Source of the DNA: Acidobacteriota bacterium
GTDB taxonomy: Bacteria; Acidobacteriota; Blastocatellia; Pyrinomonadales; Pyrinomonadaceae
NCBI GenBank assembly: GCA_032160705.1
Contig: JAVHVE010000001.1
Coordinates: forward strand, 92,113 to 116,112
Direction: 5' to 3'
Length of the DNA stretch: 24,000 bases
In this document: piece by piece, positions 4,335 to 22,795 of the stretch
How the letters are laid out: each line of letters begins with the position of its first letter
Numbering within the stretch: the first letter of the stretch is position 1
Notes under the pieces: model-generated
Told to the model about the DNA's origin: nothing
The model's input: the letters and a program-made list of their open reading frames with translations, nothing else
Databases searched by the model: none
Position numbers and translations under genes: made by a program

Positions 4335-4352
4335 TCGTTCTCACTAACCGAA

Positions 4353-4407
4353 GAGGTGGGCGCGCTTTGCAAGCCGCCGCAAGACGAGCGAAAAAGCGCG
4401 CCTCCTC
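4353..4407 (+). terminator. Stem-loop after the pilin genes (candidate attenuator / partial terminator / mRNA stabiliser)
   Basis: GAGG(t)GGGCGCGCTTT at 4353-4368 pairs with AAAGCGCGCCTCCTC at 4393-4407. That is about 15 bp with one bulge and one G-U, closing a 24-nt loop. No clear U-tract follows, so full termination is doubtful. Confidence 0.45.
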
Positions 4408-4494
4408 CTTCAAACAACTCTTGCACTCGAAGATAAAAGGTTCTGGATCATAAGCGAGTTATTAATCAATTAACCGCAAGGCAGCGAATCATAA

Positions 4495-5064: not shown

Positions 5065-5991
5065 ATGCGTAACAAACGCTTTCTGATCGTCATGGTGGGC
5101 GCGCTGGTTTTCGGCCTGCTCGCAGCTTTTTCCGTCAGCCGCTATTTGTCGAGCGCGCAGGCCGGGAGCGGCAACTTAACCAAAATCGCCGTCGCCAAAG
5201 TGGACATCCCGCTCGGTACGAAGATCATTGCGGAGCAGGTTGGAGAAGTTGAAGTTCCAGCGGGCACGACTCCTGATGGGACTTTCGAGTCGGCTGCAAA
5301 ACTGGTCGGTCGCGTCGCGGTCGTCAATATCGCCCCGCGCGAGGCTATCACGGATGCCAAGCTCGCGCCGGAAGGCACAGACGGCGGGCTGACGGCAGTC
5401 ATCCCCGAAGGCTATCGCGCGATGACGGTCAAGGTTGACGATGCTGTCGGCGTTTCGGGCTTCATCCAGCCGGGCGCGGTGGTTGATGTCGTCGTCGTCA
5501 TTGACCCCAGAGAAAACGGAGTCAATCAAGACCCGATCTCAAAAGTGGTGTTGCAGAACATCAAGGTGCTGGCCAACGGCCAGAACATTGATAAGCCGAA
5601 GAACGAGCGCGAGGCGACGACCGTAAAGGCAGTCACGCTGCAAGTGACGCCGGAGCAGGCAGAGAAACTCGCCCTGGCCGCCAACGAAGGCAAACTGCAA
5701 CTCATCATGCGCAACTCGACCGATCAGGGCGACTCGCAGACGACCGGTATCAACAAGCGCAGTTTGCTGTCAGGCGAGCGCGCCAACCCCATCCCCGATC
5801 CCGGCTCGCTCAAGAGCGAGCAACCTGAAGCCAAGCCCGCGACTGCGCCCGCGCCGCGCCGCATGCGCGTCATGGCTGAGCCAATGCAAGCGCCCGCACC
5901 GGCAATCAGCGCGCCAACTCAGCCGCCACCCCCGCGCAACTCTATCGAGATGATTCAGGGCGGCAAGAAAACCAACGTAGATTTTCCGTGA
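5065..5991 (+). CDS. cpaB: Flp pilus assembly protein CpaB/RcpC
   Basis: N-terminal membrane anchor and SAF-like segment (KIAVAKVDIPLGTKIIAEQV). Conserved core (GYRAMTVKVDD..GVSGFIQPGAVVDVV). Located between the peptidase and the secretin. Pro/Ala-rich C-tail. Confidence 0.9.
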   Translation: MRNKRFLIVMVGALVFGLLAAFSVSRYLSSAQAGSGNLTKIAVAKVDIPLGTKIIAEQVGEVEVPAGTTPDGTFESAAKLVGRVAVVNIAPREAITDAKLAPEGTDGGLTAVIPEGYRAMTVKVDDAVGVSGFIQPGAVVDVVVVIDPRENGVNQDPISKVVLQNIKVLANGQNIDKPKNEREATTVKAVTLQVTPEQAEKLALAANEGKLQLIMRNSTDQGDSQTTGINKRSLLSGERANPIPDPGSLKSEQPEAKPATAPAPRRMRVMAEPMQAPAPAISAPTQPPPPRNSIEMIQGGKKTNVDFP

Positions 5992-5996
5992 AAAAC

Positions 5997-6084
5997 CAGT
6001 TTTCAGTTTTCGGTTTTCAGTTTTAAGCAAAGACCATGTTGCTTCTTCTGGAAACTGAAAACTGAAAACTCAAAACTGAAAACT
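5997..6084. repeat. Heptamer-repeat hairpin element E1: (CAGTTTT)x4, 26-nt core, (AAAACTG)x5
   Basis: Left arm 5997-6024 pairs with right arm 6051-6078 over about 28 bp (1 mismatch, 2 G-U). The core 6025-6050 contains the mini-hairpin AAGCAA/TTGCTT. The element fills the cpaB-cpaC gap, starting 6 nt after the cpaB stop. Confidence 0.9.
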
Positions 6085-6114
6085 TCACTTCGCCACTATA
6101 GGAGCAATCGCATC

Positions 6115-7677
6115 ATGCAGACCCGTAACCCAATCGCTCGCCTCGTGACCCTGCTTTGCGCGGCGATGATCGCCAGCGCCGTTGCGCTGAACGTCCACGC
6201 GCAGGAAACCTCCTATAGCGCGTCTTTCGAGCGCAGCAAGGAGAGCGTTCCCGTCAACGTGCTCGTCGGACAATCGCGCGTCGTCAATTTTGACAAACCC
6301 ATCGGACGCTTTTCAGTCTCCAATTCTGAGATTGCCGAAGCCGTGCTCGTCGCGCCCGATCAGGTGCTCGTCAACGGCAAGGCATTCGGGCAGGTCAACT
6401 TCATCGCCTGGGAACAGTCCGGCGGCAAGTTCATCGTCTTCGATGTCTTCGTCCGTGCCAACCTGTCCCTGATTGATTCGCAGATTCGCGCGCTCTTTCC
6501 CAAAGACGACATCCGCTTGAGCCAGGCCAACGGCTCTGTGGTTATTTCGGGAAGCGTGAAAGACCCGAGGACTGTGACGCAGGTGCAAAGTGTGGTTGAG
6601 GCTGCGGGCTTCAAGACCGTCAATATGCTGGACTCGCCTGTGAAGAATGCCATGCAGGTGCAGTTGCAGGTGCGCGTGGCCGAAGTCAGCCGCACGAAGC
6701 TAAAAGAACTCGGCTCATCCTACGCCACAGCCAACGGCGGCACTTCCGCATTTGCCAGTGCTGCCGGCCCGGCGACATTGAATGAGATTGACGGCGGCAT
6801 AATGAAATACTTGTTCGCCGGAGCGAATCTTTTCTTATTCAATAGCTCGATTAATACACAGGCGTTAATTCACGCGCTCAAAACGGAAGGCGCGTTGCGC
6901 GCTCTGGCCGAGCCGAATCTGATTGCGATGGATGGCGAAGAGGCGAGCTTTCTGGCTGGCGGTGAGTATCCGGTTCCGGTCATCCAGAGCGGCGGCGATA
7001 GAAATAGCGTAAGCATCGTTTTCAAAGCCTACGGCGTGAAATTGAATTTCAAGCCGACGATCATTGATGAAAATCACATCCGGCTGGTGCTCGAACCCGA
7101 AGTCTCGACGATAGACTTTGCTACGGGAGTGAAGTTTGACGGGTTTCTGATTCCGGGCTTGCGGACACGTCGCGCCAAGACCGGCATTGAATTAAGAGAC
7201 GGCCAGAGCTTCGCGCTCGCCGGATTGCTCGACAACAGCGAGACCCGCTCGATCTCTAAGATTCCCATTCTCGGCGACATCCCCATCCTCGGCGCGCTTT
7301 TCAAATCGAAGGCGTTCCAGAAGCAGGAAACGGAATTGATGTTCTTTGTGACGGCGAATCTCGTCAAGCCCGTCAACCCGGACGACCTGCCGCGAACGCG
7401 CGGGATTGATGGACTGAAGAATGGCTCGCCGCTCGGCGTTGAGCCAAAAGGCGAAGGCATCACAGGACAAAGCGGCTTCTCGACTGGCACATCGGAAAAT
7501 AATCCTGCCGTCGCGCCGCAGCCCGCCACGCCCAAGCCCGCCAAGCCTGTGCCCGCGAGTCCGGCAGAGACGAAAGCGGTCAGCCAGCTCTCGCCGAACA
7601 CGCTGGAGGCTTTCCCGGCTCCCCCGCCGATGCCTCCAGCGGCGCAGGTGAAAGTTGACACTCCGGTTGCGCCTTAA
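6115..7677 (+). CDS. cpaC: Tad secretin CpaC/RcpA (outer-membrane channel)
   Basis: Signal peptide (...AVALNVHAQE), N-terminal pilus-secretin N domain and BON-like segment. Secretin core motifs (ALAEPNLIAMDGEEASFLAGGEYPVP; IPILGDIPILGALFKS). Pro/Ala-rich C-tail. Confidence 0.95.
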   Translation: MQTRNPIARLVTLLCAAMIASAVALNVHAQETSYSASFERSKESVPVNVLVGQSRVVNFDKPIGRFSVSNSEIAEAVLVAPDQVLVNGKAFGQVNFIAWEQSGGKFIVFDVFVRANLSLIDSQIRALFPKDDIRLSQANGSVVISGSVKDPRTVTQVQSVVEAAGFKTVNMLDSPVKNAMQVQLQVRVAEVSRTKLKELGSSYATANGGTSAFASAAGPATLNEIDGGIMKYLFAGANLFLFNSSINTQALIHALKTEGALRALAEPNLIAMDGEEASFLAGGEYPVPVIQSGGDRNSVSIVFKAYGVKLNFKPTIIDENHIRLVLEPEVSTIDFATGVKFDGFLIPGLRTRRAKTGIELRDGQSFALAGLLDNSETRSISKIPILGDIPILGALFKSKAFQKQETELMFFVTANLVKPVNPDDLPRTRGIDGLKNGSPLGVEPKGEGITGQSGFSTGTSENNPAVAPQPATPKPAKPVPASPAETKAVSQLSPNTLEAFPAPPPMPPAAQVKVDTPVAP

Positions 7678-7726
7678 CAAGCAAGGCATTCGTCAATGTC
7701 ATTAAGCATGAGAGAGGAGGGAAGCG

Positions 7727-8845
7727 ATGAGTGTCAGGGAAAGAAAGACAGACAGAAAAAGTGAGCGCGGATCGGTTCTGGCGACCGCCACACTCGGCAT
7801 GCTGACCCTCCTTCTCGCCGTCGGACTGGGCGTTGACATCAGCCGCATGTACCTGACGAAGACCGAATTGCAGAACGCGGCGGACGCGGCGGCGCTGGCC
7901 GGAGCATCGGGCTTGAACGGTTCAGGAAACGGAATCAAAACAGCGACGGATCGCGCCGTGCAAGCGATGAACAACTACGCCTTCAACAAGACGAATGTTG
8001 TCATCCCGCGCACGAATGTTACGTTCGCCGTCAACCTCGACGGGCCATACATGAGCGAGAGTGCGGCTGCGGCTGCGGCGACAAACATTCGCTTCGTCCG
8101 CGTCTCCACTCCCGATCTGCCGTCCAGCGTCACCTTTGCCGCGCCAATCCTCGGCGATAAACGAAACCTGGCGGCGACAGCGACCGCCGGTCTCTCAGTT
8201 CCAATTAACGTCTTCTGCAACTGGATTCCGCTCTCTGTCATTGACTACGACATCCCGATGGTTCCGGGCCAGGTCTACACGATTCGCTCTGCGCCCGGCA
8301 ACAAAGTCTCTCCGGGAAACTATCAGATTCTCGCCGTTTCGGGTCGCGGCGGCAAAGACGTGCGCGAAGGTCTGGCGAGCGGCGTTGACGAATGCGCCGA
8401 GCCGGGCGCGACCTATACGATTGATACCAAGCCGGGCGTCAGCGCTGGCCCGGTCAGGCAGGGCATCAACACGCGCTTCGATGATTACCAGGGCGGGCAG
8501 GTCAATCCGACGGATCATCCGCCCGACACGAACGTCAAGAACAACATCACCTACGACCAATATCGTGACGGCACGGCCACGCAAGCGCCGACGCATACGG
8601 GCGTGCCCGGTCGCCGCATAGTGATTATCCCGATTGTCAAATTAGCTGAGTACGACCAAGGCAGAGACACTGTGAAGTTCAACCGCTTCGGCCAGTTCTT
8701 CCTGCGCTCCAAAGTCGGCAACGGCAACGGCGGCGACATCGAGGCCGAGTATATAGACGACATCGTCGTCGCCGGTAAAGGCGGCTACAACCCGAACGGC
8801 GGCCCGACCAATAACCTGATGGCCGTTCCTGTGCTTTATAAATAG
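7727..8845 (+). CDS. tadG: TadG-like pseudopilin / pilus assembly protein
   Basis: N-terminus ERGSVLATATLGMLTLLLAVGLGVDISRMYLTKTELQNAADAAALAGA is the typical TadG-like N-terminal segment. RBS gagaggagg is upstream. No VWA domain seen in this copy. Confidence 0.8.
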   Translation: MSVRERKTDRKSERGSVLATATLGMLTLLLAVGLGVDISRMYLTKTELQNAADAAALAGASGLNGSGNGIKTATDRAVQAMNNYAFNKTNVVIPRTNVTFAVNLDGPYMSESAAAAAATNIRFVRVSTPDLPSSVTFAAPILGDKRNLAATATAGLSVPINVFCNWIPLSVIDYDIPMVPGQVYTIRSAPGNKVSPGNYQILAVSGRGGKDVREGLASGVDECAEPGATYTIDTKPGVSAGPVRQGINTRFDDYQGGQVNPTDHPPDTNVKNNITYDQYRDGTATQAPTHTGVPGRRIVIIPIVKLAEYDQGRDTVKFNRFGQFFLRSKVGNGNGGDIEAEYIDDIVVAGKGGYNPNGGPTNNLMAVPVLYK

Positions 8846-8892
8846 GGCGCTTCTTTCAGATTTTTTCAGAAATCAAACTTTGCGCTTCACGA

Positions 8893-9399
8893 ATGAGGGG
8901 AAGCAAAACGATGAGGAGACATGGAAAGATAACGAGGGGGTTTTTCAGCTTCGCACGCGAAGAACGCGGCGCGCAGCTCGTCGAGCTGGCAATCGTGCTG
9001 CCGATCTTCCTCGTGATGTTCGGCGCAGCCGCAGAGTTCGGACGTTACTTCTACGAATACACCACGCTCGACAAGGCCGTGCGCGCAGGCTCGCGCTATC
9101 TCGCCACCGCCGCAGTCAACGCGGCAGAGGACACAAAGGCCAGGAACATCATCGTCTATGGCAATCCGACGGGCACGGGCACGCCCGTCATCAAGGGATT
9201 GACGACGGCGAATGTCGTTATCACGCGCGCGGGCGGCGTTCCGGTTCTGCCGCAGACGGTGACGGTGCAGATTACGGGTTACAAGTACCAGCCCGTGTTC
9301 GATCTCGGCAAGCTCATCAAAGTCCCATCGCTCTCTCTGAACATTGATGTCAAGCCGAGCGTCACGATGCGCTACCTGCTGACGCAGCCGCCGATTTGA
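8893..9399 (+). CDS. tadE: TadE-like minor pseudopilin
   Basis: TadE N-terminal motif ERGAQLVELAIVLPIFLVMFGAAAEFGRYFY. An alternative start at ATG 8911 has better RBS spacing. Confidence 0.85.
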   Translation: MRGSKTMRRHGKITRGFFSFAREERGAQLVELAIVLPIFLVMFGAAAEFGRYFYEYTTLDKAVRAGSRYLATAAVNAAEDTKARNIIVYGNPTGTGTPVIKGLTTANVVITRAGGVPVLPQTVTVQITGYKYQPVFDLGKLIKVPSLSLNIDVKPSVTMRYLLTQPPI

Positions 9400-9460
9400 A
9401 TAGTCAGTTTTCAGATGGAATGCAGGACTGAAGACGAGGATGGACGGGGAGTCGTAGAGA

Positions 9461-9928
9461 ATGGTTCGCTCCAGAAGAGAAAGAAGAACTGAACGCGGCG
9501 CGACTCTTGTGGAGTTTGCCATCGGCGCGACCGTTTTCCTGACGGCCATGTTCGCCGTCATAGAGTTTGGCCGCGCCCTCTGGACGCACAACGCTCTGTC
9601 GGACGCGGCGCGGCGCGGCGCACGCTACGCTGTCAATCATAAAGGGCCGGACGTTGCCAATCCGGCGGGCGACGTTGCCGCCGTGAAGAACGTCGTCGTC
9701 TATGGCGACCCTTTGGGTGGCTCGAAACCAGTGGTTGACAATCTGACGACCGCCAACGTTCAGGTGCAATACTCAAACTTCGGACTCGGCGCGGGGACGG
9801 TCTCGGTGAGCATCACGAACTATAAATTCCAATTCATCATCCCCATCGTCGGCACAACCATCTCGATGCCCAACTACAACACGACGCTGACGGGCGAAAA
9901 CGCGGGACTTGTCCCGCCGAATCTTTAA
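9461..9928 (+). CDS. tadE: TadE/TadF-like minor pseudopilin (second copy)
   Basis: TadE N-terminal motif ERGATLVEFAIGATVFLTAMFAVIEFGRALW. It shares the later motif V(I/V)VYG(N/D)P.G...P(V)(I/V)..LTTANV with the preceding gene. Confidence 0.85.
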   Translation: MVRSRRERRTERGATLVEFAIGATVFLTAMFAVIEFGRALWTHNALSDAARRGARYAVNHKGPDVANPAGDVAAVKNVVVYGDPLGGSKPVVDNLTTANVQVQYSNFGLGAGTVSVSITNYKFQFIIPIVGTTISMPNYNTTLTGENAGLVPPNL

Positions 9929-9929
9929 T

Positions 9930-10018
9930 CAGTTTTCAGTTTTGAGTTTTCAGTTTTCAGTAAGAATTGAAGACTGGCGACTCGGAACTGAAAACTGAAA
10001 ACCGAAAACTGAAAACTG
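9930..10018. repeat. Heptamer-repeat hairpin element E2: (CAGTTTT)-type x4.5, 25-nt loop, (AAAACTG)-type x4.5
   Basis: Positions 9930-9961 pair with 9987-10018, about 32 bp with one 2-nt internal mismatch (GAGTTTT opposite AAAACCG). It starts 2 nt after the tadE stop and ends 3 nt before the cpaE ATG. Confidence 0.9.
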
Positions 10019-10021
10019 ACC

Positions 10022-11239
10022 ATGATTACATTCGTCATCCTGAGCACCGGCCTTGATACCTTTAAGGAGATTCGCAGCGCCCTGGCGAGCGACGCGCGAG
10101 CGCGTTTGCTGGCGGGCGGCGACGACGCCGAGCAGGTTTATGCGGAGATTAAGAACCTGCGCCCCTCGGCGGTTGTCATCACGATGTCAGAGGCGAATTC
10201 CGAGCAGGCGTTGAAGATGATTGTAAAGCTTTCTGCCGAAAGCCCGCAGATTGCGATCATCTCAGCCGTCCGCAACGCCTCGCCCGATCTGATTCTTCGT
10301 AGTATGCGCGCCGGAGCGCGCGAGTTTTTGCGACTCCCCATCATCGCTGAAGAATTCAAGACCGTGCTCGACCGCACAGTAGAATTTTGCGCCGTACAGA
10401 AGGAAGCGCCGAAGAAGAAAGGACGCATGATCGCGGTCTTTTCCAGCAAGGGAGGCTGCGGCACATCCTTTATCGCTACCAATCTCGCCGCCGCGTTGAA
10501 TGCTCCGACGATGCTGGTTGATCTCAATTTGCAGGCGGGCGACCTGCCGCTCTTTCTCGGAGTCGAGCCGAAATATTCCATCGCCGACATGGTTGAGAAT
10601 CGCGCCCGCATGGACGACTCCTTGCTGGCGAGCTACGTCACGCCGCACTCGTCGAAATTGTCGCTGCTGGCCGCGCCGCGCGAGGCCGATTCGGCGGATG
10701 ACATCGAGCCTGAGCATGTCTTCGAGGCATTAGAGCGCGTGCGCGAATCTTACGATTACGTCGTGCTCGACCCGCAGCACACGTTCGACGCCATCACGCT
10801 CGCCGCGCTCGATCAAGCGGACGACATCGTGCTGGTTCTCACCCTCGACATCCCGGCCATTCGCAGCGCGCAACGCGCACTGGAAATCTTCGACCGGCTC
10901 GGCTACCCGCGCAAGAAAGTCCGTATCATCGTCAATCGCTGGAGCAAGCAGATTGATCTTGATTTGCGGCAGGTCGAGCGATTCCTGAAGGAGAAAGTGA
11001 CGGGCTTTGTGTCGAGCGACTATCAAATGGCGGTCACGTCCATCAATCTCGGACAACCGCTTGTTCAGTCAGAGCCTTCGTCGAAAATCGCCGTCGAGAT
11101 TAAGCGCATTGTGGCGACACTGATGGGCGCATCCGCTGAAAGCATAGAGGAGCAACCGCAGCGCAAGAAAATCTGGGGGGCGCTCTTCAAGCGCAACAGC
11201 GGCGCAGCGCAAAATCTTGATCTCCGCCCAACTCCTTAA
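10022..11239 (+). CDS. cpaE: CpaE/TadZ: receiver-like N-domain plus atypical ParA/MinD-type ATPase domain
   Basis: Deviant Walker [20 protein letters not shown] keeps the KGG signature Lys but has Thr where the P-loop Lys sits in MinD (KGGVGKT), as described for TadZ. The CheY-like N-terminal fold pattern and position before cpaF also fit. Confidence 0.88.
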
Positions 11240-11295
11240 AACGCTCTCAACCAGGTGAGAGCGCAGAAACGAATCAAAACGGAAGACCACACATT

Positions 11296-12639
11296 ATGGC
11301 ACTACGCGAAAGATTAATCAGAGACATCACCCAGCCGGGCGCGGGCGTCGTGGCTGCCGAAGACGCGGCCAACTCGCAACGCTCGTTTCAGGAAATGAAG
11401 TCGCGGCTTCATCGCGCGCTCATCAATCGCATGGATTTGACGAAGCTCGGCGCGATGGCTCCCGAACAGGTTTATTCCGAAGTCTCGCGTCTGGCCGAAG
11501 GTGTGCTGGCGACCGAGGGGATGCCTCTGTCAACAGTCGAGCGCGAGCGGCTGGTCAATGAAGTACGCCACGAGCTTTTCGGCCTGGGGCCGCTTGAGCC
11601 GCTTCTCGCAGACCCGACCATCTCCGACATTCTCGTCAACTCGCACCGCACAATTTATATCGAGCGGCGCGGCAAACTGGAAGCGACCGACATTGCTTTC
11701 AAAGACGACGAGCATTTGATGCGCGTCATCGAGCGCATCGTCTCTTCGGTTGGTCGCCGGATAGATGAATCTTCGCCGATGGTAGACGCCCGCCTCGCGG
11801 ACGGCTCGCGCGTCAACGCCATCATCCCGCCGCTTTCGATTGACGGCCCTGTGCTTTCGATTCGCCGCTTCGGGGCTGAACCGCTCAGGATGGGTGCGCT
11901 GATTGAGAATCGCGCGTTGACTCGTGAAATCGCCGAGATGATGGAAATGTGCGTCAGTGCGCGTCTCAACTTACTCATCTCCGGCGGCACGGGCGCGGGC
12001 AAGACCACGCTCTTGAACGCGCTCTCGGCCTACATCCCGGAAACGGAGCGCATCGTCACCATCGAAGATTCCGCCGAGTTGCAGTTGCAGCAGCCGCACG
12101 TCGTTCGTCTGGAGACACGACCTCCCAACATCGAAGGTCGCGGCGAAGTCACGCAGCGCGATCTGGTCAAGAACGCCCTGCGTATGCGTCCCGACCGCAT
12201 CGTCATCGGCGAGGTGCGCGGCGGCGAAGCGATAGATATGTTGCAAGCGATGAACACCGGCCACGACGGGAGCTTGACGACGATTCACGCCAACACCCCA
12301 CGCGACGCACTCTCCCGGCTGGAAACGATGATTCAGATGACAGGCATGCGTCTATCGGAGCGCGCGATGCGGCAGCAAGTGGCCAGCGCGCTCGATATTG
12401 TCCTGCAAGTCGCTCGTCTGTCAGACGGCACGCGCCGCGTCACTTCCATCTCGGAGATTACGGGGATGGAAGGCGACACCATCACGATGCAGGAAATCTT
12501 CCAGTTCGAGAGAACGGGCATTGATCCGACGGGCAAGGTCATAGGCCGTTTTCGCCCGACCGGGATTCGCCCGCGCTTCGCGGAAAAACTCAAAGCCTAC
12601 GGACTTCACCTTCCGAGAACAATTCTGGAGGAGATGTAA
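11296..12639 (+). CDS. cpaF: Tad secretion ATPase CpaF/TadA
   Basis: Walker [16 protein letters not shown]. Asp box and Walker B ([12 protein letters not shown]; [13 protein letters not shown]). His box [14 protein letters not shown]. Typical VirB11/GspE-superfamily length. Confidence 0.97.
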
Positions 12640-12645
12640 AAGACA

Positions 12646-13611
12646 ATGCTGATCTCCTTTTTAGTTTTCGTCTTCTGCCTGTTTCTGGTGCTGGCCGCCT
12701 ATCTCTTGGCGACGCGAAGCTCCGACGCCAAGCGCACACGCTTGCAACAACGTCTCAGCGAAGCCCTGCTTAATTCGGCGCACACGGACGATGTCGAAGT
12801 GTTGCTGGCGCGGCAGGAGTTGATGAGCGAGATTCCCTGGCTCAATCGCACGCTGGTTCAGCTACAGGTGGTGACGCGATTCAAGCGCGTCCTCGATCAA
12901 GCCGACCTGGAGATTACCGTCACGCGGCTGGCGATGTTTGCGTTGATGGCGGGAATGCTCGCGGGTCTGGCCGCGTCAATGCTCACCGTTTCGTTCATGA
13001 TTATCTTGAGCTGCGGGTTGATGGGCGCGGTTGTTCCTTTCATGCACGTCTTCTGGAAACGAAAGAAACGCTTCGATAAGTTTCTCGAACACCTGCCAGA
13101 CGCGCTGGAGTTGATGAGCCGCGCTCTGTCCGCCGGGCACGCATTCTCCGAAGCCCTGCACATGGTCTCAATCGAGATGCCTGAGCCGATCTCCAAGGAG
13201 TTTCGCAAGACCTACGAGGAACAGAATCTGGGACTCTCGCTCAAGCTGGCGCTTGAGAATTTGACGCAGCGCATGCCGCTGCTTGATCTGCGCCTGTGCG
13301 TGACCGCCGTTATGATTCAACGCGAAACGGGCGGCAACCTCGCGGAGATTCTGGAAAAGGTCGCCTATACGATCCGCGAACGCTTCCGCATCCTCGGCGA
13401 TCTGAAAACACTGACAACCAGCTCGCGGCTCTCGGCGTGGCTGCTCTGCGGCCTGCCCGTTGGCGTCGCCATCGCCGTGACCGCGATGAACCCCGAATAC
13501 ATGAGCATCCTCTGGAAAGACCCGCGCGGCCACAAACTGATCTACCTCGCCGTCGCCCTGCAAATCTCCGGCATGCTCATCGTGAGGAAGATTTTGAGAA
13601 TCAAGATATGA
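12646..13611 (+). CDS. tadB: Tad inner-membrane platform protein TadB (T2SSF domain)
   Basis: N-terminal TM, then a cytoplasmic T2SSF-like domain (LPDALELMSRALSAGHAFSEAL...IQRETGGNLAEILEKVA), then C-terminal TMs. Lies directly after cpaF. Confidence 0.9.
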   Translation: MLISFLVFVFCLFLVLAAYLLATRSSDAKRTRLQQRLSEALLNSAHTDDVEVLLARQELMSEIPWLNRTLVQLQVVTRFKRVLDQADLEITVTRLAMFALMAGMLAGLAASMLTVSFMIILSCGLMGAVVPFMHVFWKRKKRFDKFLEHLPDALELMSRALSAGHAFSEALHMVSIEMPEPISKEFRKTYEEQNLGLSLKLALENLTQRMPLLDLRLCVTAVMIQRETGGNLAEILEKVAYTIRERFRILGDLKTLTTSSRLSAWLLCGLPVGVAIAVTAMNPEYMSILWKDPRGHKLIYLAVALQISGMLIVRKILRIKI

Positions 13612-13691
13612 GTTTTCAGTTTTCAGTTTTGAGCAAAGACTCGGTTGCTTCTTCTGAAAACTGAAAACTGAAAACTGAAAACTGAAAACTG
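13610..13691. repeat. Heptamer-repeat hairpin element E3: (C/G)AGTTTT x3, 26-nt core, (AAAACTG)x5
   Basis: The left arm 13610-13630 overlaps the tadB stop codon. The right arm 13657-13691 has 5 perfect units, so several pairing registers are possible. The core 13631-13656 is near-identical to the E1 core. It ends 3 nt before the tadC ATG. Confidence 0.9.
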
Positions 13692-13694
13692 ACT

Positions 13695-14624
13695 ATGCTT
13701 TTAATAATCACCATCTCCACATTCGTCTGCATCACGTTTGGCGTGATGGCTCTTTACTGGCTCGTCTATCGCCCGCAGAGCGCGGCGACCGAGCGGCTCA
13801 AGCGGCTGGGGCAAACGAACTCGGCGGCGACCGCTGCCGTTGTGGTGAGCGATGATCGCCCGGTGACGGAGTTGGCTGAACGCATCGCCGCACCGCTCCA
13901 TCGTCTTGCGCCGCCATCGGCAGCCGAAGCGCAGAAGCTCCAGAAGATTCTGATGCACGCGGGCTTTCGCGGACAAAATGCGCCGATTATTTATCGCGCG
14001 ATTCAGTTGACTTCGCTGGTGCTATTTCCGGGGGCAGTCGCGCTCCTGTTTGCTTTTCTGGCATGGCCGCTCAACAGCGCGCTCGTCTGGTTTCTGGTCG
14101 CCTTCATTCTCGGATTCTTCGTGCCGCGCTTCGTGCTGGATCAGAAGATTAAGGGGCGCAAGCAGCGTGTGCGCTGGGGACTGGCAGACGCGCTCGACCT
14201 GATGGTTGTTTCGATTGAAGCCGGGCTCGGATTAAACGCCGCGATGATGCGCGTGAGCGACGAGTTGAAAGATGTGCACAGGGACATCAGCGAAGAATTT
14301 GAGCTGGCGAATCTGGAAATCAAAGTCGGACGCGACCGCGACGAAGCCCTGCGTAACCTGGCAGAGCGCACGGGCGTTGACGATCTGCGCAGCCTCGTGG
14401 CGATGTTGATTCAGGCCGACCGCTTCGGCACATCAATCGCTCGCGCCGTGCGTGTCTTCTCTGATTCACTACGCACCAAGCGACGGCAACGCGCCGAGCA
14501 GGCCGCGCAGAAGGCCGCCGTCAAGCTGCTCTTCCCGCTCGCCTGCTTTCTTTTCCCGGTGCTTTTCATCGCCATCCTAGGCCCCGCGATGCTGACACTG
14601 ATTGACACTTTCGCCACCATGTAA
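13695..14624 (+). CDS. tadC: Tad inner-membrane platform protein TadC (T2SSF domain)
   Basis: T2SSF-like domain (LADALDLMVVSIEAGLGLNAAMMRVSDEL...LIQADRFGTSIARAVRVFSDSLRTKRRQRAEQ) flanked by TM segments. Paralogous to tadB. Confidence 0.9.
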   Translation: MLLIITISTFVCITFGVMALYWLVYRPQSAATERLKRLGQTNSAATAAVVVSDDRPVTELAERIAAPLHRLAPPSAAEAQKLQKILMHAGFRGQNAPIIYRAIQLTSLVLFPGAVALLFAFLAWPLNSALVWFLVAFILGFFVPRFVLDQKIKGRKQRVRWGLADALDLMVVSIEAGLGLNAAMMRVSDELKDVHRDISEEFELANLEIKVGRDRDEALRNLAERTGVDDLRSLVAMLIQADRFGTSIARAVRVFSDSLRTKRRQRAEQAAQKAAVKLLFPLACFLFPVLFIAILGPAMLTLIDTFATM

Positions 14625-14634
14625 TTACGAAAGG

Positions 14635-14669
14635 CAGAATTCAGAATTCAGAATCCAGAAGTCAGAATG
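14635..14669. repeat. Tandem heptamer tract (CAGAATT, CAGAATT, CAGAATC, CAGAAGT, CAGAATG)
   Basis: Five consecutive CAGAATN-type units read directly in the tadC-tadD gap. AGGCAGAA (14632-14639) can pair with TTCTGCCT (14706-14713). Confidence 0.8.
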
Positions 14670-14758
14670 AAGATGCGGAGAACCACTGTTACAGATTTTA
14701 TTTTCTTCTGCCTCCTGACTACTGCTTTTCATCGTCCGACTGAAAGGAGCTTGAAATA

Positions 14759-15703
14759 ATGCGTAGACGCACAATCATCGCCATCGCTATCGCCGCCACC
14801 CTGTGCTTCGGTGTCACGGCCTTCTGGAGCGCGCAGACTACTTTGCGCGACGGTGAGACGGACGCCAACATCGTCAGCGATGCGGGCGCGAAGACGGGTT
14901 CAAACATGGAGAAGAAAAAGGACGGCAATCGCGTCGTGAAAGTTTTGACCGCGCCGTTTCGCGCCTTTCGTCGTCTCTTCGGTGGAGGAAAAGATGAGGG
15001 CAAGCTTCAACACCTCAGCGAAAAGGATGTCGAGAAATTTGAGAGCACAGGGATGGCGCGCATCAACGACAGCCGTAACCCTGCGGAAGCGAAGCCGAGC
15101 GCGACAGGAACTGCCCGCGATCATCTCTCGCTGGGACGCATGTTCCTCTCAGCGGGGCGCATCAACGAGGCAATTTCAGAACTCTCGCTCGCCGCTTCGC
15201 TCGACCCGCGCCTTGCGGAAGCTCACAGCCTGCTTGGCCTCGCCTACGACCGCAAAGGCATGCACGACCGCGCGAAAGATGCTTACGACCGCGCGATCAA
15301 AAACGACCCTGAAGATGCGCAGACGCTCAACAATCTGGGCTTCTCGCTCTACCAGAACGGCAACTACCGCGCCGCCGTTGACAAGTTGAAGCGCGCCGCC
15401 CGCCTCGCGCCGACAGACGGGCGCATTCTGAACAATCTAGCCCTCGCGCAGATTCGTCTAGGCAAAACGGACGACGCTTACAAGAACTTTGCGCGCGCAG
15501 GCGGCGAAGTGACAGGCCATCTCAACACCGCTTCCATGCTCGAACGCCTCGGGCGCGAGGACGAAGCCATCAAGCACTACGAAGCCGCGCGCCGCGCTCA
15601 GCCGAACTCGATTACCGCGCTCAGTCGCCTGGCAGACCTCTACCGCCGGACAGGACGCGGCAACGAAGCTCAGGCGGCGCAGATGGCGCTTGCCGGAAAT
15701 TAA
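14759..15703 (+). CDS. tadD: TPR-repeat protein, TadD-like
   Basis: N-terminal signal/anchor, then several TPR units (e.g. AHSLLGLAYDRKGMHDRAKDAYDRAIKNDPEDAQTLNNLGFSLYQNGNYRAAVDKLKRAARLAP). Located after tadC. RBS aaaggag is upstream. Confidence 0.8.
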   Translation: MRRRTIIAIAIAATLCFGVTAFWSAQTTLRDGETDANIVSDAGAKTGSNMEKKKDGNRVVKVLTAPFRAFRRLFGGGKDEGKLQHLSEKDVEKFESTGMARINDSRNPAEAKPSATGTARDHLSLGRMFLSAGRINEAISELSLAASLDPRLAEAHSLLGLAYDRKGMHDRAKDAYDRAIKNDPEDAQTLNNLGFSLYQNGNYRAAVDKLKRAARLAPTDGRILNNLALAQIRLGKTDDAYKNFARAGGEVTGHLNTASMLERLGREDEAIKHYEAARRAQPNSITALSRLADLYRRTGRGNEAQAAQMALAGN

Positions 15704-15735: not shown

Positions 15736-17085
15736 ATGACGCATACAGGGATTCTGACGCGGACTGAAATCGAGAGCATGGGGCCGCCCGTGCCGGAAGA
15801 GATTGCCGACACGGGTGTGTCTGAAGGTTTCTTGTGTGATCTGGCGCTCAAGCACGTGGCGATGCTGGCCGAACCGACGACCGGAGCGGTCGCAGAAAGG
15901 CTTCATCTTCCGCGCACTCTCACAGAAGAGTTGTTGCAGATACTCTACCGCGAAAAGCTGATTGAAGTTCGCATGCAGACCACGCCGGGCTCGACGCGCT
16001 ACGCGATGCTGGATCACGGCTGGGAGCGCATGGCGCGCCTGCAAGCGATGTGCGGTTACACAGGCGCTGCGCCGGTCTCTCTGAAAGATTACGCGCACAT
16101 GATGCGCCTTCAGGCGATCCCTTCGCATCCGGCCTCGATGGAGACCGTGCGCGCGGCCTTTCGCGATCTGGTGCTGCCCGATTCCTTGCTGCAAACGCTC
16201 GGCTGCGTCATCAATTCACGCCGCTCGCTCTTTCTGACGGGGTTGCCGGGAACGGGTAAGACTGCCGTGGCGGAACGCATCAACTCGGCGCTCCCCGGCG
16301 CGATCTGGATTCCCTATGCCATCGAGATTGACGGTCAGATTATCCGTGTCTTCGATTCGCACTCGCATCGCGTCGTGCCCGAAGACCAGACGCCGATGGA
16401 GCACGACCGTCGCTGGGTGCACATTGAGCGCCCGCTGATTGTCGTCGGCGGCGAATTGACACTGGAGAACACAGACCTCGTCTGGTCGGATGTCGCAAAG
16501 TTTTATGAAGCGCCGTTTCAGATGAAGTCGAACGGCGGAACGCTGGTCATTGACGACTTCGGACGACAGCGCGTCGCGCCGCAGGATTTGCTCAATCGCT
16601 GGATTGTTCCCTTAGAGCGGCGCATGGACTATCTGGCGCTGCACACGGGCAAGAAAATCGAAGTTCCTTTCGAGCAGCTCGTGCTCTTTTCCACCAATCT
16701 TGAAGAGAAGGATTTGGCCGACGAAGCATTTTTGCGGCGCATGGGTTATCGCGCACGCGTCGAGCCTCCGACGCCTGCGGCTTACGTTGAAATCTTCAAG
16801 CGCGTGGCTTACACACGCGGCATCAAGTGCGATCAGACCTGCCTCGATCACATTTTGAACAACTACATGATTGAGCATCGCCAGATGAAAGCCTGCGAGC
16901 CGCGCGATCTGCTCGACCGCGTGACCGACATCTGTCTCTTCGAGGGGCACACGCTTGAGCTTAATCCGAAACTGATTGACGTGGCCTGGCGTAACTACTT
17001 TGGCGCATCGCACGGCTTCTCGACGCAAGCACCGTCGGCGCGCCAGACGGGCGAGCTTGTGCTGGACGAGCCGTTGCAGATTTGA
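15736..17085 (+). CDS. AAA+ ATPase (MoxR/AAA_5-like core) with a ~170-aa N-terminal winged-helix-like domain; function unknown
   Basis: Walker A LFLTGLPGTGKTAVAERI and Walker B GTLVIDDFGRQ. Then LNRWIVPLERRMDYLALHTGKKIEVPFEQLVLFSTN...DEAFLRRMGY, which mirrors the MoxR pattern (LLE..E.r.v...G....vPf..lv.aTqN ... A.ldRf). It starts 32 nt after tadD. Confidence 0.8.
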   Translation: MTHTGILTRTEIESMGPPVPEEIADTGVSEGFLCDLALKHVAMLAEPTTGAVAERLHLPRTLTEELLQILYREKLIEVRMQTTPGSTRYAMLDHGWERMARLQAMCGYTGAAPVSLKDYAHMMRLQAIPSHPASMETVRAAFRDLVLPDSLLQTLGCVINSRRSLFLTGLPGTGKTAVAERINSALPGAIWIPYAIEIDGQIIRVFDSHSHRVVPEDQTPMEHDRRWVHIERPLIVVGGELTLENTDLVWSDVAKFYEAPFQMKSNGGTLVIDDFGRQRVAPQDLLNRWIVPLERRMDYLALHTGKKIEVPFEQLVLFSTNLEEKDLADEAFLRRMGYRARVEPPTPAAYVEIFKRVAYTRGIKCDQTCLDHILNNYMIEHRQMKACEPRDLLDRVTDICLFEGHTLELNPKLIDVAWRNYFGASHGFSTQAPSARQTGELVLDEPLQI

Positions 17086-20689: not shown

Positions 20690-22720
<2,031 letters not shown>

Positions 22721-22749: not shown

Positions 22750-22795
22750 ATGTCCCCTGCGAATCTTAAGAGAAGCATTCGCAGGGGACATTTCT
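22750..22795. terminator. Bidirectional intrinsic terminator between convergent genes
   Basis: Perfect 15-bp stem ATGTCCCCTGCGAAT / ATTCGCAGGGGACAT with a 12-nt loop, followed by TTTCT. It sits between the radical SAM gene (+) and the DUF433 gene (-). Confidence 0.85.

Follow-up and report, generated by a model that had tools for sequence, protein, structure and literature searches.

Long hairpins of inverted heptamer arrays between the genes of an acidobacterial tad operon

What are the long hairpins that separate blocks of genes in the tad/flp pilus operon of an Acidobacteriota bacterium, and at which level would they act? The stretch that raises this question, called the window throughout, covers 24,000 nucleotides of a Pyrinomonadaceae genome (GenBank assembly GCA_032160705.1, contig JAVHVE010000001.1, positions 92,113 to 116,112 of the forward strand). 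Three of its intergenic gaps hold an element of the form (CAGTTTT)n–core–(AAAACTG)n, namely E1 at 5997–6085, E2 at 9929–10019 and E3 at 13610–13692 (window coordinates). Elements of this kind settle almost only directly past the stop codon of a gene with a co-directional neighbour downstream, and they probably act on messenger RNA, as judged from their placement and strand asymmetries. E1–E3 are intergenic palindromes of a dispersed class that abounds in this lineage, each with an AT-rich core of ~25 nt between its arms, and our fuller proposal is that they would act on the polycistronic mRNA in the manner of repetitive extragenic palindromic (REP) sequences, with an A-rich leader wherever the 3' arm abuts an ATG; we regard this as an even call. 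The kind itself is already known from cyanobacteria, and these elements are its acidobacterial counterpart.

Three hairpins and the rules of their placement

The original prediction, made from the letters of the window, placed three hairpins in these gaps, and they are found there by tandem-repeat detection, by 14-mer search, by their inverted-repeat arms and by folding. Tandem Repeats Finder reports period-7 arrays in all six arms (5997–6024 and 6048–6084 in E1, 9929–9961 and 9986–10019 in E2, 13611–13630 and 13654–13692 in E3), and the 14-mer CAGTTTTCAGTTTT, searched with at most two mismatches, matches 20 times against 0.17 expected, with every match confined to E1–E3. The inverted-repeat arms are 30–33 nt long, 90–94% complementary and 25–27 nt apart (33 nt each and 94% in E2), while core length across the three elements is about 25–33 nt. 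Folded as RNA with RNAfold, E1, E2 and E3 reach minimum free energies (MFE) of –41.0, –46.1 and –34.0 kcal/mol (z –6.9, –9.0 and –5.8), better than all of 200 shuffles. The tad gene assignments made earlier agree with Pfam, which gives the blocks A24 prepilin peptidase and RcpC/CpaB; secretin, TadG, TadE and TadE; CpaE-type ATPase, CpaF and TadB; and TadC with a TPR protein.

For the wider family, an exact-pattern scan across one genome per species found the CAGTTTT/AAAACTG element in at least 117 genome loci. The repeat is dispersed, as first supposed, and abundant in the same genome and in related ones, contrary to the absence elsewhere in the genome that the original prediction named as refuting it. 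None of 129 AAAACTG-type elements lies inside a gene. With by-catch hairpins included, 128 of 143 elements sit between co-directional genes (89.5% versus 78.3% of all gaps, p = 0.0007). Divergent gaps hold fewer elements than expected (3.5% versus 10.9%, p = 0.002). Oriented by transcription, the distance from the upstream stop codon to the 5' arm has a median of 4 nt and is at most 6 nt in 67% of cases. On the other side, the spacing between 3' arm and start codon falls into two peaks, at 2–6 nt and at 14–19 nt. A Shine-Dalgarno-like motif stands in the interval for 20 of the 33 elements that end 9–30 nt before a start, and 37 of 103 elements, E2 and E3 included, end within 8 nt of the start codon (ATG in 35 of them), where there is no space for such a motif. 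Both distances are 8 nt or less in 31 elements, the summed single-stranded spacer having a median of 6 nt. Where the spacer has 60 nt or more to spare, 17 elements keep close to the stop codon and 2 to the start codon (p = 0.0007); closeness to the stop is therefore the main rule, and short gaps do not account for it. Stop anchoring and depletion in promoter regions are the rules known for REP-type stem-loops, and together with the strand asymmetries described below they lead us to infer action on mRNA.

The features of the three elements in the window are as follows.

5989–5991, plus strand: TGA stop codon of cpaB/rcpC (gene 5065–5991); the 5' arm of E1 begins 5 nt downstream
5997–6024, plus strand: 5' arm of E1, CAGTTTT CAGTTTT CGGTTTT CAGTTTT
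6025–6050, plus strand: core and apical loop of E1, AAGCAAAGACCATGTTGCTTCTTCTG, a paralogue of the E3 core, from a core family common to other genomes
6051–6085, plus strand: 3' arm of E1, GAAACTG AAAACTG AAAACTC AAAACTG AAAACTT, five units versus four in the 5' arm
6100–6117, plus strand: AGGAG Shine-Dalgarno site and ATG (6115) of cpaC (secretin), outside the E1 hairpin
9929–9961, plus strand: 5' arm of E2, T CAGTTTT CAGTTTT GAGTTTT CAGTTTT CAGT, 1 nt after the TAA stop codon of tadE2 (9926–9928)
9962–9986, plus strand: core of E2, with a weak resemblance to other cores
9987–10019, plus strand: 3' arm of E2, ACTG AAAACTG AAAACCG AAAACTG AAAACTG A, 2–3 nt before the ATG of cpaE (10022)
13610–13630, plus strand: 5' arm of E3, GAGTTTT CAGTTTT CAGTTTT, its first unit overlapping the TGA stop codon of tadB (13609–13611)
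13631–13656, plus strand: core of E3, GAGCAAAGACTCGGTTGCTTCTTCTG, a paralogue of the E1 core
13657–13691, plus strand: 3' arm of E3, (AAAACTG)x5, two units more than the 5' arm, followed by ACT and then the ATG of tadC (13695)

Arms are unequal, as expected for slippage-prone repeats (3 versus 5 units in E3, 4 versus 5 in E1). The elements were said to fill their gaps almost entirely; this is true of E2 and E3, while E1 leaves 29 nt before cpaC. There is no room for a Shine-Dalgarno site upstream of the ATG of cpaE, after E2, or of tadC, after E3, and the cpaE start codon at 10022 is supported by orthologues.

The two arms also differ in their reading frames. The (AAAACTG)n arm (13657–13692, and all 3' arms) carries TGA every 7 nt and so places stops in all three frames just before the next start; the (CAGTTTT)n arm has zero stop codons in any frame.

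Proposed action on the transcript

In a palindrome most properties are strand-symmetric, and two exceptions were found here, arm length and mismatch type. On the sense strand of AAAACTG-type elements the 3' arm is the longer one in 44 cases and the 5' arm in 21 (p = 0.006); other heptamers give 17:8, and all combined 61:29 (p = 0.001). The ratio is 21:4 where the start codon lies within 8 nt and 10:10 where it lies more than 30 nt away (Fisher p = 0.023), and it flips with gene strand: the right arm is longer 25:15 between genes of a '>>' pair, the left arm 19:6 in a '<<' pair. By direct arm-register counting, 94% of 2114 arm positions are Watson-Crick, with sense-strand G·U-type mismatches outnumbering A·C-type ones 54 to 31 (p = 0.017); G·U pair counts taken from MFE structures were not significant (p = 0.2). 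Both asymmetries are oriented by the direction in which the genes are transcribed, which speaks for the RNA level. Covariation evidence is weak: variant units (TAG, GAG, CGG) are matched by a complementary partner in 18 cases where 8.1±2.6 are expected, while most variant units are uncompensated and form wobble pairs or mismatches. Among hairpins of other heptamers, the 5' arm is rich in T and the 3' arm rich in A in 18 of 25 cases, so that an A-rich arm faces the downstream start in either insertion orientation.

REP-type repeats, including bacterial interspersed mosaic elements (BIMEs), stabilise upstream mRNA segments. Newbury (1987) and Liang, Rudd and Deutscher (2015) are said to have found that REP-type stem-loops shield upstream mRNA from 3' exonucleases and that those less than ~15 nt from a stop codon interfere with terminating ribosomes. 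In the model that we prefer for the tad operon, which follows REP-type stem-loops past stop codons, a stem of ~30 bp would abut the last ribosome of the upstream cistron; it would block 3'-to-5' decay and leave no naked spacer, and the tad transcript would thereby be split into segments of unlike stability. For E2 before cpaE and E3 before tadC, the (AAAACUG)n arm would be the sole leader available, free of a Shine-Dalgarno site and largely masked by pairing with the 5' arm. A Shine-Dalgarno motif that the folded hairpin might bring near the start was looked for just upstream of E2 and E3, and there is none. Downstream translation could then depend on terminating ribosomes that melt the stem base (translational coupling), on extra unpaired 3' units or on cleavage of the stem. 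A ribosome ending at a stop codon 0–5 nt from the stem would have to melt the stem base and would free the nucleotides beside the AUG, and surplus 3' units may serve as a standing single-stranded platform.

A bolder version would make inverted heptamer arrays a cross-phylum RNA 'zipper' that couples adjacent cistrons. The terminating ribosome would unzip the 5' arm and expose an A-rich, Shine-Dalgarno-independent leader; a single-strand binder with a ~7-nt footprint (cold-shock-domain or S1-type) would explain the periodicity; and the mechanism would be common to cyanobacterial heptamer repeats, to the TAACTGA arrays discussed below and to the dense hairpins of virus-labelled contigs. We consider this generalisation speculative and distinctly unlikely.

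The original prediction listed processing by RNase III or RNase E, and mRNA stabilisation that sets subunit stoichiometry, among possible roles. Cleavage of the stems by RNase III appears plausible and would be compatible with the preferred model. Correia elements (as in Neisseria) and ERIC elements are targets of RNase III or RNase E, and the RNase III hairpins of phage T7 early mRNA leave, after processing, a protective 3' stem and can activate downstream translation. The elements resemble the T7 sites in being long stems between cistrons of one transcript; unlike them, they are repeats with heptad periodicity, each T7 site having a sequence of its own and conserved internal loops. That the near-perfect 21–33 bp double-stranded stems exist as processing sites, cleaved to yield cpaA-B, cpaC-tadE, cpaE-tadB and tadC, is something we would put forward tentatively and think rather unlikely. 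Stems of at least 20 bp with few mismatches suit the generic substrate requirement, and a cut would leave the upstream half-stem as a 3' end and an A-rich leader downstream, in keeping with Shine-Dalgarno-free starts. Nothing in the observations so far is specific to RNase III, however; neither stop adjacency nor the excess of 3' arms requires cleavage, and stems rich in AU, with mismatches at regular intervals, may be cleaved poorly or to a variable degree.

The location past stop codons is also typical of terminators, and the flanks are T-rich on the 3' side and A-rich on the 5' side family-wide (for example ...AAAACTG CTTTTTATG). Intra-operon terminators or attenuators, in which a hairpin and a U-rich tract end part of the transcripts, would produce a step-down of expression along the operon. 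E1, E2 and E3 differ from intrinsic terminators in their AU-rich stems, in cores or loops of ~25 nt and in having no U-tract past the stem (the 3' flanks are CACTTCG, ACCATG and ACTATG). None of 20 terminator-like matches between 3900 and 15000 falls on an element, a scan for promoter and terminator consensus found nothing at the elements, and downstream genes begin 2–6 nt past the stem, with no space for a promoter of their own. We therefore take termination to be very unlikely here.

Turnover at orthologous junctions and the origin of the elements

The history of the elements was followed in 80 tad loci found by a metagenome scan with CpaF, from which the junctions were extracted (comparison loci carry L numbers). 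At cpaB|cpaC the window and L055 (85% CpaB identity) both carry an element, with the same flanks and a different core and different unit numbers; 14 other relatives lack it. At tadE2|cpaE, E2 is found in the window alone and is absent in 24 of 24 comparable relatives. At tadB|tadC, CAGTTTT hairpins occur in the window, L081 and L118, the latter two holding orthologues of E3. CAGTGGT/CAGTAGT units occupy the same junction in L119, L120, L125 and L127, TACTTAG/CAAAGTA in L121, L126, L128 and L129, GCAGTAA in L130, ATTGCC in L131 and an 8-mer, CTCTGTGn, in L132, while the gap is merely 2–31 nt in eight close relatives. Long gaps at this junction fold as long stems in 13 of 15 cases (lag-7 autocorrelation 0.46–0.74, MFE –26 to –57 kcal/mol, z –3.5 to –13). 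CAGTTTT does not define the family: the same architecture is built from many heptamers even at one junction. At least six heptamer families are present at tadB|tadC, and their type tracks the CpaF tree, which indicates vertical persistence and turnover in situ; the hairpin is kept through roughly 15–25% protein divergence despite complete sequence turnover. The hairpins of L131 and L132 are missing in relatives with 95–97% identical CpaF, which indicates recent gain. The cpaE|cpaF and cpaF|tadB junctions are occupied in L118, L130, L133, L137, L139 and L145. Evolution is fast: unit number changes and the heptamer turns over, and the arms stay complementary.

A fourth element in the window, built from another type of heptamer unit, has the look of an old copy or of one in decay. 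It lies in the tadC|TPR gap, which measures 134 nt (14625–14758), while 15 of 15 relatives have 9–16 nt there with an AGGAG Shine-Dalgarno site. The fold of the gap (14622–14762) is no better than that of shuffles (z –0.15).

14635–14669, plus strand: degenerate fourth element, CAGAATT CAGAATT CAGAATC CAGAAGT CAGAATG
14704–14725, plus strand: its decayed partner arm, TTCTTCTGCCTCCTGACTACTGC, in which pairing is left only at the CAG/CTG clamps

A separate feature was noticed at tadE2|cpaE. In the related loci L126, L128 and L129 this gap is 227–251 nt long and contains a conserved insert of ~230 nt (…CCGGCCTTGCAGTATCGCGATGGTCCTACCGTAACCCCCAGGCACTCTGTC…), against 34–112 nt in other relatives; it may represent a small gene, or else a structured RNA that has yet to be described.

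The elements exist as homologous copies with related cores at many loci and in both orientations. One similarity cluster, CAG-xAAAAGC…GCTTTTx-CTG, takes in 44 of 87 cores. The E1 and E3 cores are mutual best matches and co-oriented (alignment score 38 versus a maximum of 20 for shuffled cores), and they also resemble cores of other genomes; the E2 core is weakly similar to others and has GACTCGG and GAAGAC in common with the E1/E3 cores, in the same orientation. The original prediction saw variant units swapping arms between E1 and E2 and took this for insertion in opposite orientations. The arm pattern of E2 does mirror that of E1, but the cores do not back an inversion of the whole element, the E2 core being co-oriented (on weak similarity), so that E2 was rejected as an inverted copy of E1; family-wide both orientations are equally common. 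A strand-specific core motif or small RNA was also considered and is ruled out by the random orientation of cores relative to transcription (24 versus 20 in the cluster; 76 same versus 86 opposite among all pairs).

Random core orientation and a palindrome identical on both strands would suit a function at the DNA level, as a cruciform, a heptad-periodic protein-binding site (nucleoid, gyrase or IHF-like, as at BIMEs) or a hypermutable contingency locus. The AT-rich centre would favour cruciform extrusion, and unit number varies. Against this stand the depletion of divergent (promoter) regions, the sense-strand asymmetries and the fact that heptamers differ between elements, which leaves a specific binder no conserved sequence. 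We find such a function less credible even than termination.

The main rival to action on mRNA is that the elements are selfish or neutral palindromic DNA without function, MITE-, REP- or PATE-like, whether mobile and non-autonomous or born of slippage. Palindromes would be kept by template-switch 'quasipalindrome correction' and would survive where a hairpin is harmless, that is after stop codons and before ribosome-binding sites. Much agrees with this: close relatives differ in presence, with E2 unique to the window lineage; homologous cores stand at many loci in both orientations; paralogous copies occupy neighbouring junctions (E1 and E3, as well as two (GTGACAG)n elements further along the contig); decayed copies exist; and purifying selection against harmful insertions alone could yield the positional rules. 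Like miniature inverted-repeat transposable elements (MITEs), the elements show presence/absence polymorphism and multiple homologous copies. Unlike MITEs, they show no target-site duplication or fixed inverted terminal repeat. The element flanks contain no target-site duplication, consistent terminal sequence or flank palindrome (flank complementarity is 2.75 of 8 positions versus 2.0 at random), and empty and filled sites (L131/L132 versus L133–L137) give no clean insertion boundaries, so that the comparison of orthologous loci suggested earlier yielded neither boundaries nor a duplication. Transcription-oriented asymmetries (61:29 and 54:31) are unexpected for a symmetric DNA-level element, the tadB|tadC hairpin persists despite complete sequence turnover, and a harmless element need not hug the stop codon in long spacers, yet 17 do so versus 2. 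On this balance we hold a selfish or neutral origin without function to be possible, if on the doubtful side.

It should be noted that several observations weigh against the action on polycistronic mRNA that we prefer. Every functional step of the mRNA model is inferred. Ready gain and loss imply that any role is dispensable, the fourth element is decaying, and core orientation is random. With the AGGAG inside the 29 nt that E1 leaves, the cpaC ribosome-binding site is untouched by the hairpin. RNAfold energies of whole hairpins do not differ significantly between sense and antisense strands (p = 0.12), and the two strand asymmetries are modest effects to which mutation associated with transcription could have contributed. 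Finally, genes in the comparison loci were called by a simple caller based on open reading frames (ORFs) and codon usage, validated on the JGI calls for this window alone, which it reproduces.

Known repeats and the spread of the class

The original prediction did not recognise a described repeat family and placed the elements between REP- or MITE-like hairpins and the heptameric short tandemly repeated repetitive (STRR) sequences of cyanobacteria. The placement was apt, and the kind is one already described. Named STRR consensus units are CCCCAGT (STRR1), TTGGTCA (STRR2) and CAACAGT (STRR3); to our knowledge CAGTTTT/AAAACTG is not among them, and the CAGT tetranucleotide alone is common to both. 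Hairpins made of 7-bp STRR arrays stand between the cistrons of filamentous cyanobacteria, for example hupS-hupL, with function unknown and with higher transcript stability or translational coupling as proposals (PMC2670836). Such arrays also occur in spacers of nif/hyp operons. Spacers of Nostoc PCC 7120 hold ttgtcagttgtcagttgtca (44 copies), ccactgactactgac and ttgtcag(x3) arrays (PMC2408588 Table 3), and CAGTTGT/ACTGAC units of this strain are those found at tadB|tadC in L119, L120, L125 and L145. A Nostoc preprint implicates heptamer arrays near start codons in regulation (10.1101/2022.06.06.494920).

Like STRRs, the acidobacterial elements are made of tandem 7-nt units, are dispersed and intergenic with many extragenic copies per genome, and form inverted arrays that fold as stem-loops between cistrons of one operon; their sequence varies among close relatives while the structure is kept. 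Unlike STRRs, they live in Acidobacteriota (Pyrinomonadaceae) and sporadically in Planctomycetota and Bacteroidota, not in cyanobacteria, and they do not carry the named consensus units. A consistent arm–core–arm element, a shared core family and quantified positional rules also set them apart from STRRs as described in the literature that we found.

The TAACTGA arrays of marine Beggiatoaceae (MacGregor 2015), also present in some Cyanobacteria and Bacteroidetes, are intergenic, end about 1–3 nt before start codons without a Shine-Dalgarno site and have been proposed to act in translation via S1, Csp or CsrA-type binders; they are direct arrays in 'forward' orientation, with one inverted case among 170 (PMC4679880). 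Read as AAACTGA, the unit of our likewise intergenic elements is 1 base different, and the TAACTGA position rule fits the 3' arms of E2, E3 and the 37 of 103 members noted above. Here, by contrast, nearly every array has a reverse-complementary partner with which it forms a long hairpin, and position is set first by the stop codon upstream and not by the start codon.

Extragenic hairpins past stop codons, lying between co-directional or convergent genes and rare in divergent promoter regions, are typical of REP/BIME repeats, as well as of SMAG-, ERIC- and Correia-type ones, and this is what we find. REPs are imperfect palindromes of 20–40 nt, with a conserved, family-specific sequence recognised and mobilised by a RAYT (Y1) transposase. 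The acidobacterial elements differ from REP/BIME repeats in heptamer periodicity and in arm sequence that is free to vary. By their defining features, then, the elements are of an STRR-like kind, REP-like in position and probably in action; they are probably not REPs, and they are neither MITEs nor terminators. A literature search found no report of such elements in Acidobacteria, and a search for the exact repeat sequence found no bacterial report. Rfam at gathering threshold gave no match in the window, and a single tRNA was its sole match in L126, L128, L129, L199 and L200.

Among the matches listed in the scan, 101 come from metagenome-assembled genomes (MAGs) of Acidobacteriota (Pyrinomonadaceae, Pyrinomonadales, Blastocatellia or gp4 by their labels), and a single MAG often contributes several loci; the remaining 16 are spread over Planctomycetota, Bacteroidota, Verrucomicrobiota, Armatimonadota, Proteobacteria and one Firmicutes MAG. 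One-armed AAAACTG arrays were counted 12 times. A period-7 detector run on the genome loci found 110 inverted array pairs, 33 of them with heptamers other than AAAACTG, such as GGATTTT, GCGGATT, CAGTAGG, GATGAGT, AGGGATG and CTGGAGT; the CAGT/ACTG tetranucleotide is common to many units. Sorted by period, inverted tandem-array pairs number 86 at 7 and 5 at 8, with none at 5, 6 or 9–12. Tad loci of distant phyla are nearly free of heptamer arrays (2 in 444 kb). The class is defined by architecture, not by heptamer sequence.

The window is part of a 147-kb contig from JGI soil metagenome 3300044807. Extended by 10 kb on either side of the window (42.7 kb examined), the source contig holds ~9 heptamer elements of at least four heptamer types. 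Outside the window these are two (GTGACAG)n hairpins, one (GGCAGTn)n hairpin, a one-armed (AAAACTG)5 and a small CTCCAGA array. In the downstream part of the contig (L199), two successive junctions of a surE-pcm operon each hold a (GTGACAG)n–core–(CTGTCAC)n hairpin (15508–15577 and 16284–16357); the two are paralogues, and the 151–191-nt regions around them fold at about –72 kcal/mol. Their cores, AAGATAAAAGCTTGTTCTTTCTT, resemble those of the CAGTTTT elements, which suggests that cores are common to several heptamer types. The gene rpsU (S21) follows the one-armed (AAAACTG)5 (L199 14352–14388) after 18 nt and is served by a GGAGAG Shine-Dalgarno site of its own. At L199 20656–20770 a (GGCAGTn)4…(nACTGCC)5 hairpin stands in a region that folds at –98 kcal/mol. 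The 5' arm of this hairpin overlaps the 5' end annotated for a called ORF on the minus strand, and the 3' arm falls in the gap ahead of a divergent dnaJ-domain gene.

For over 30 years cyanobacteria have been known to carry STRR-type heptamer repeats, to which no agreed function has been assigned. The window shows this architecture in a soil phylum unrelated to them, with roughly one element every 5 kb. Its quantitative rules (a stop-anchored 5' arm, divergent depletion, turnover with the structure kept, a longer A-rich 3' arm at Shine-Dalgarno-free starts) lead to specific testable predictions. There are practical consequences as well: the elements break assemblies, they create intercistronic gaps of 80–170 nt inside operons that operon predictors will mis-split, and they mark genes translated without a Shine-Dalgarno site.

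Two further inverted repeats of the window are of a different make. A GC-rich one at 4350–4411, with 19-nt arms GAAGAGGTGGGCGCGCTTT / AAAGCGCGCCTCCTCCTTC, lies between the second of the small Flp-pilin genes, ~16 nt upstream, and the A24 peptidase gene. Probably this is a stem-loop of the conventional sort, parting the highly expressed pilin genes from the assembly genes. The other, a perfect 15-bp repeat ATGTCCCCTGCGAAT / ATTCGCAGGGGACAT with a 12-nt loop at 22750–22791, begins 30 nt past a radical-SAM gene (20690–22720) and is likely to be a terminator or a protein-binding site.

Heptamer hairpins reach extreme density in five IMG/VR contigs labelled 'viral' (L200–L204, GC content 62–68%), one of which holds more than 20 arrays in 10 kb. 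Their families include GCTGTCG, GGGAGTA, CGCTATT, GGGATTA, CGTGGGG and CAGTTTT/CAGTGTT, among others. The Gemmataceae loci L053 and L067 show the same mix of CAGTGTT and CAGTTTT, and the host of these contigs is therefore possibly a planctomycete.

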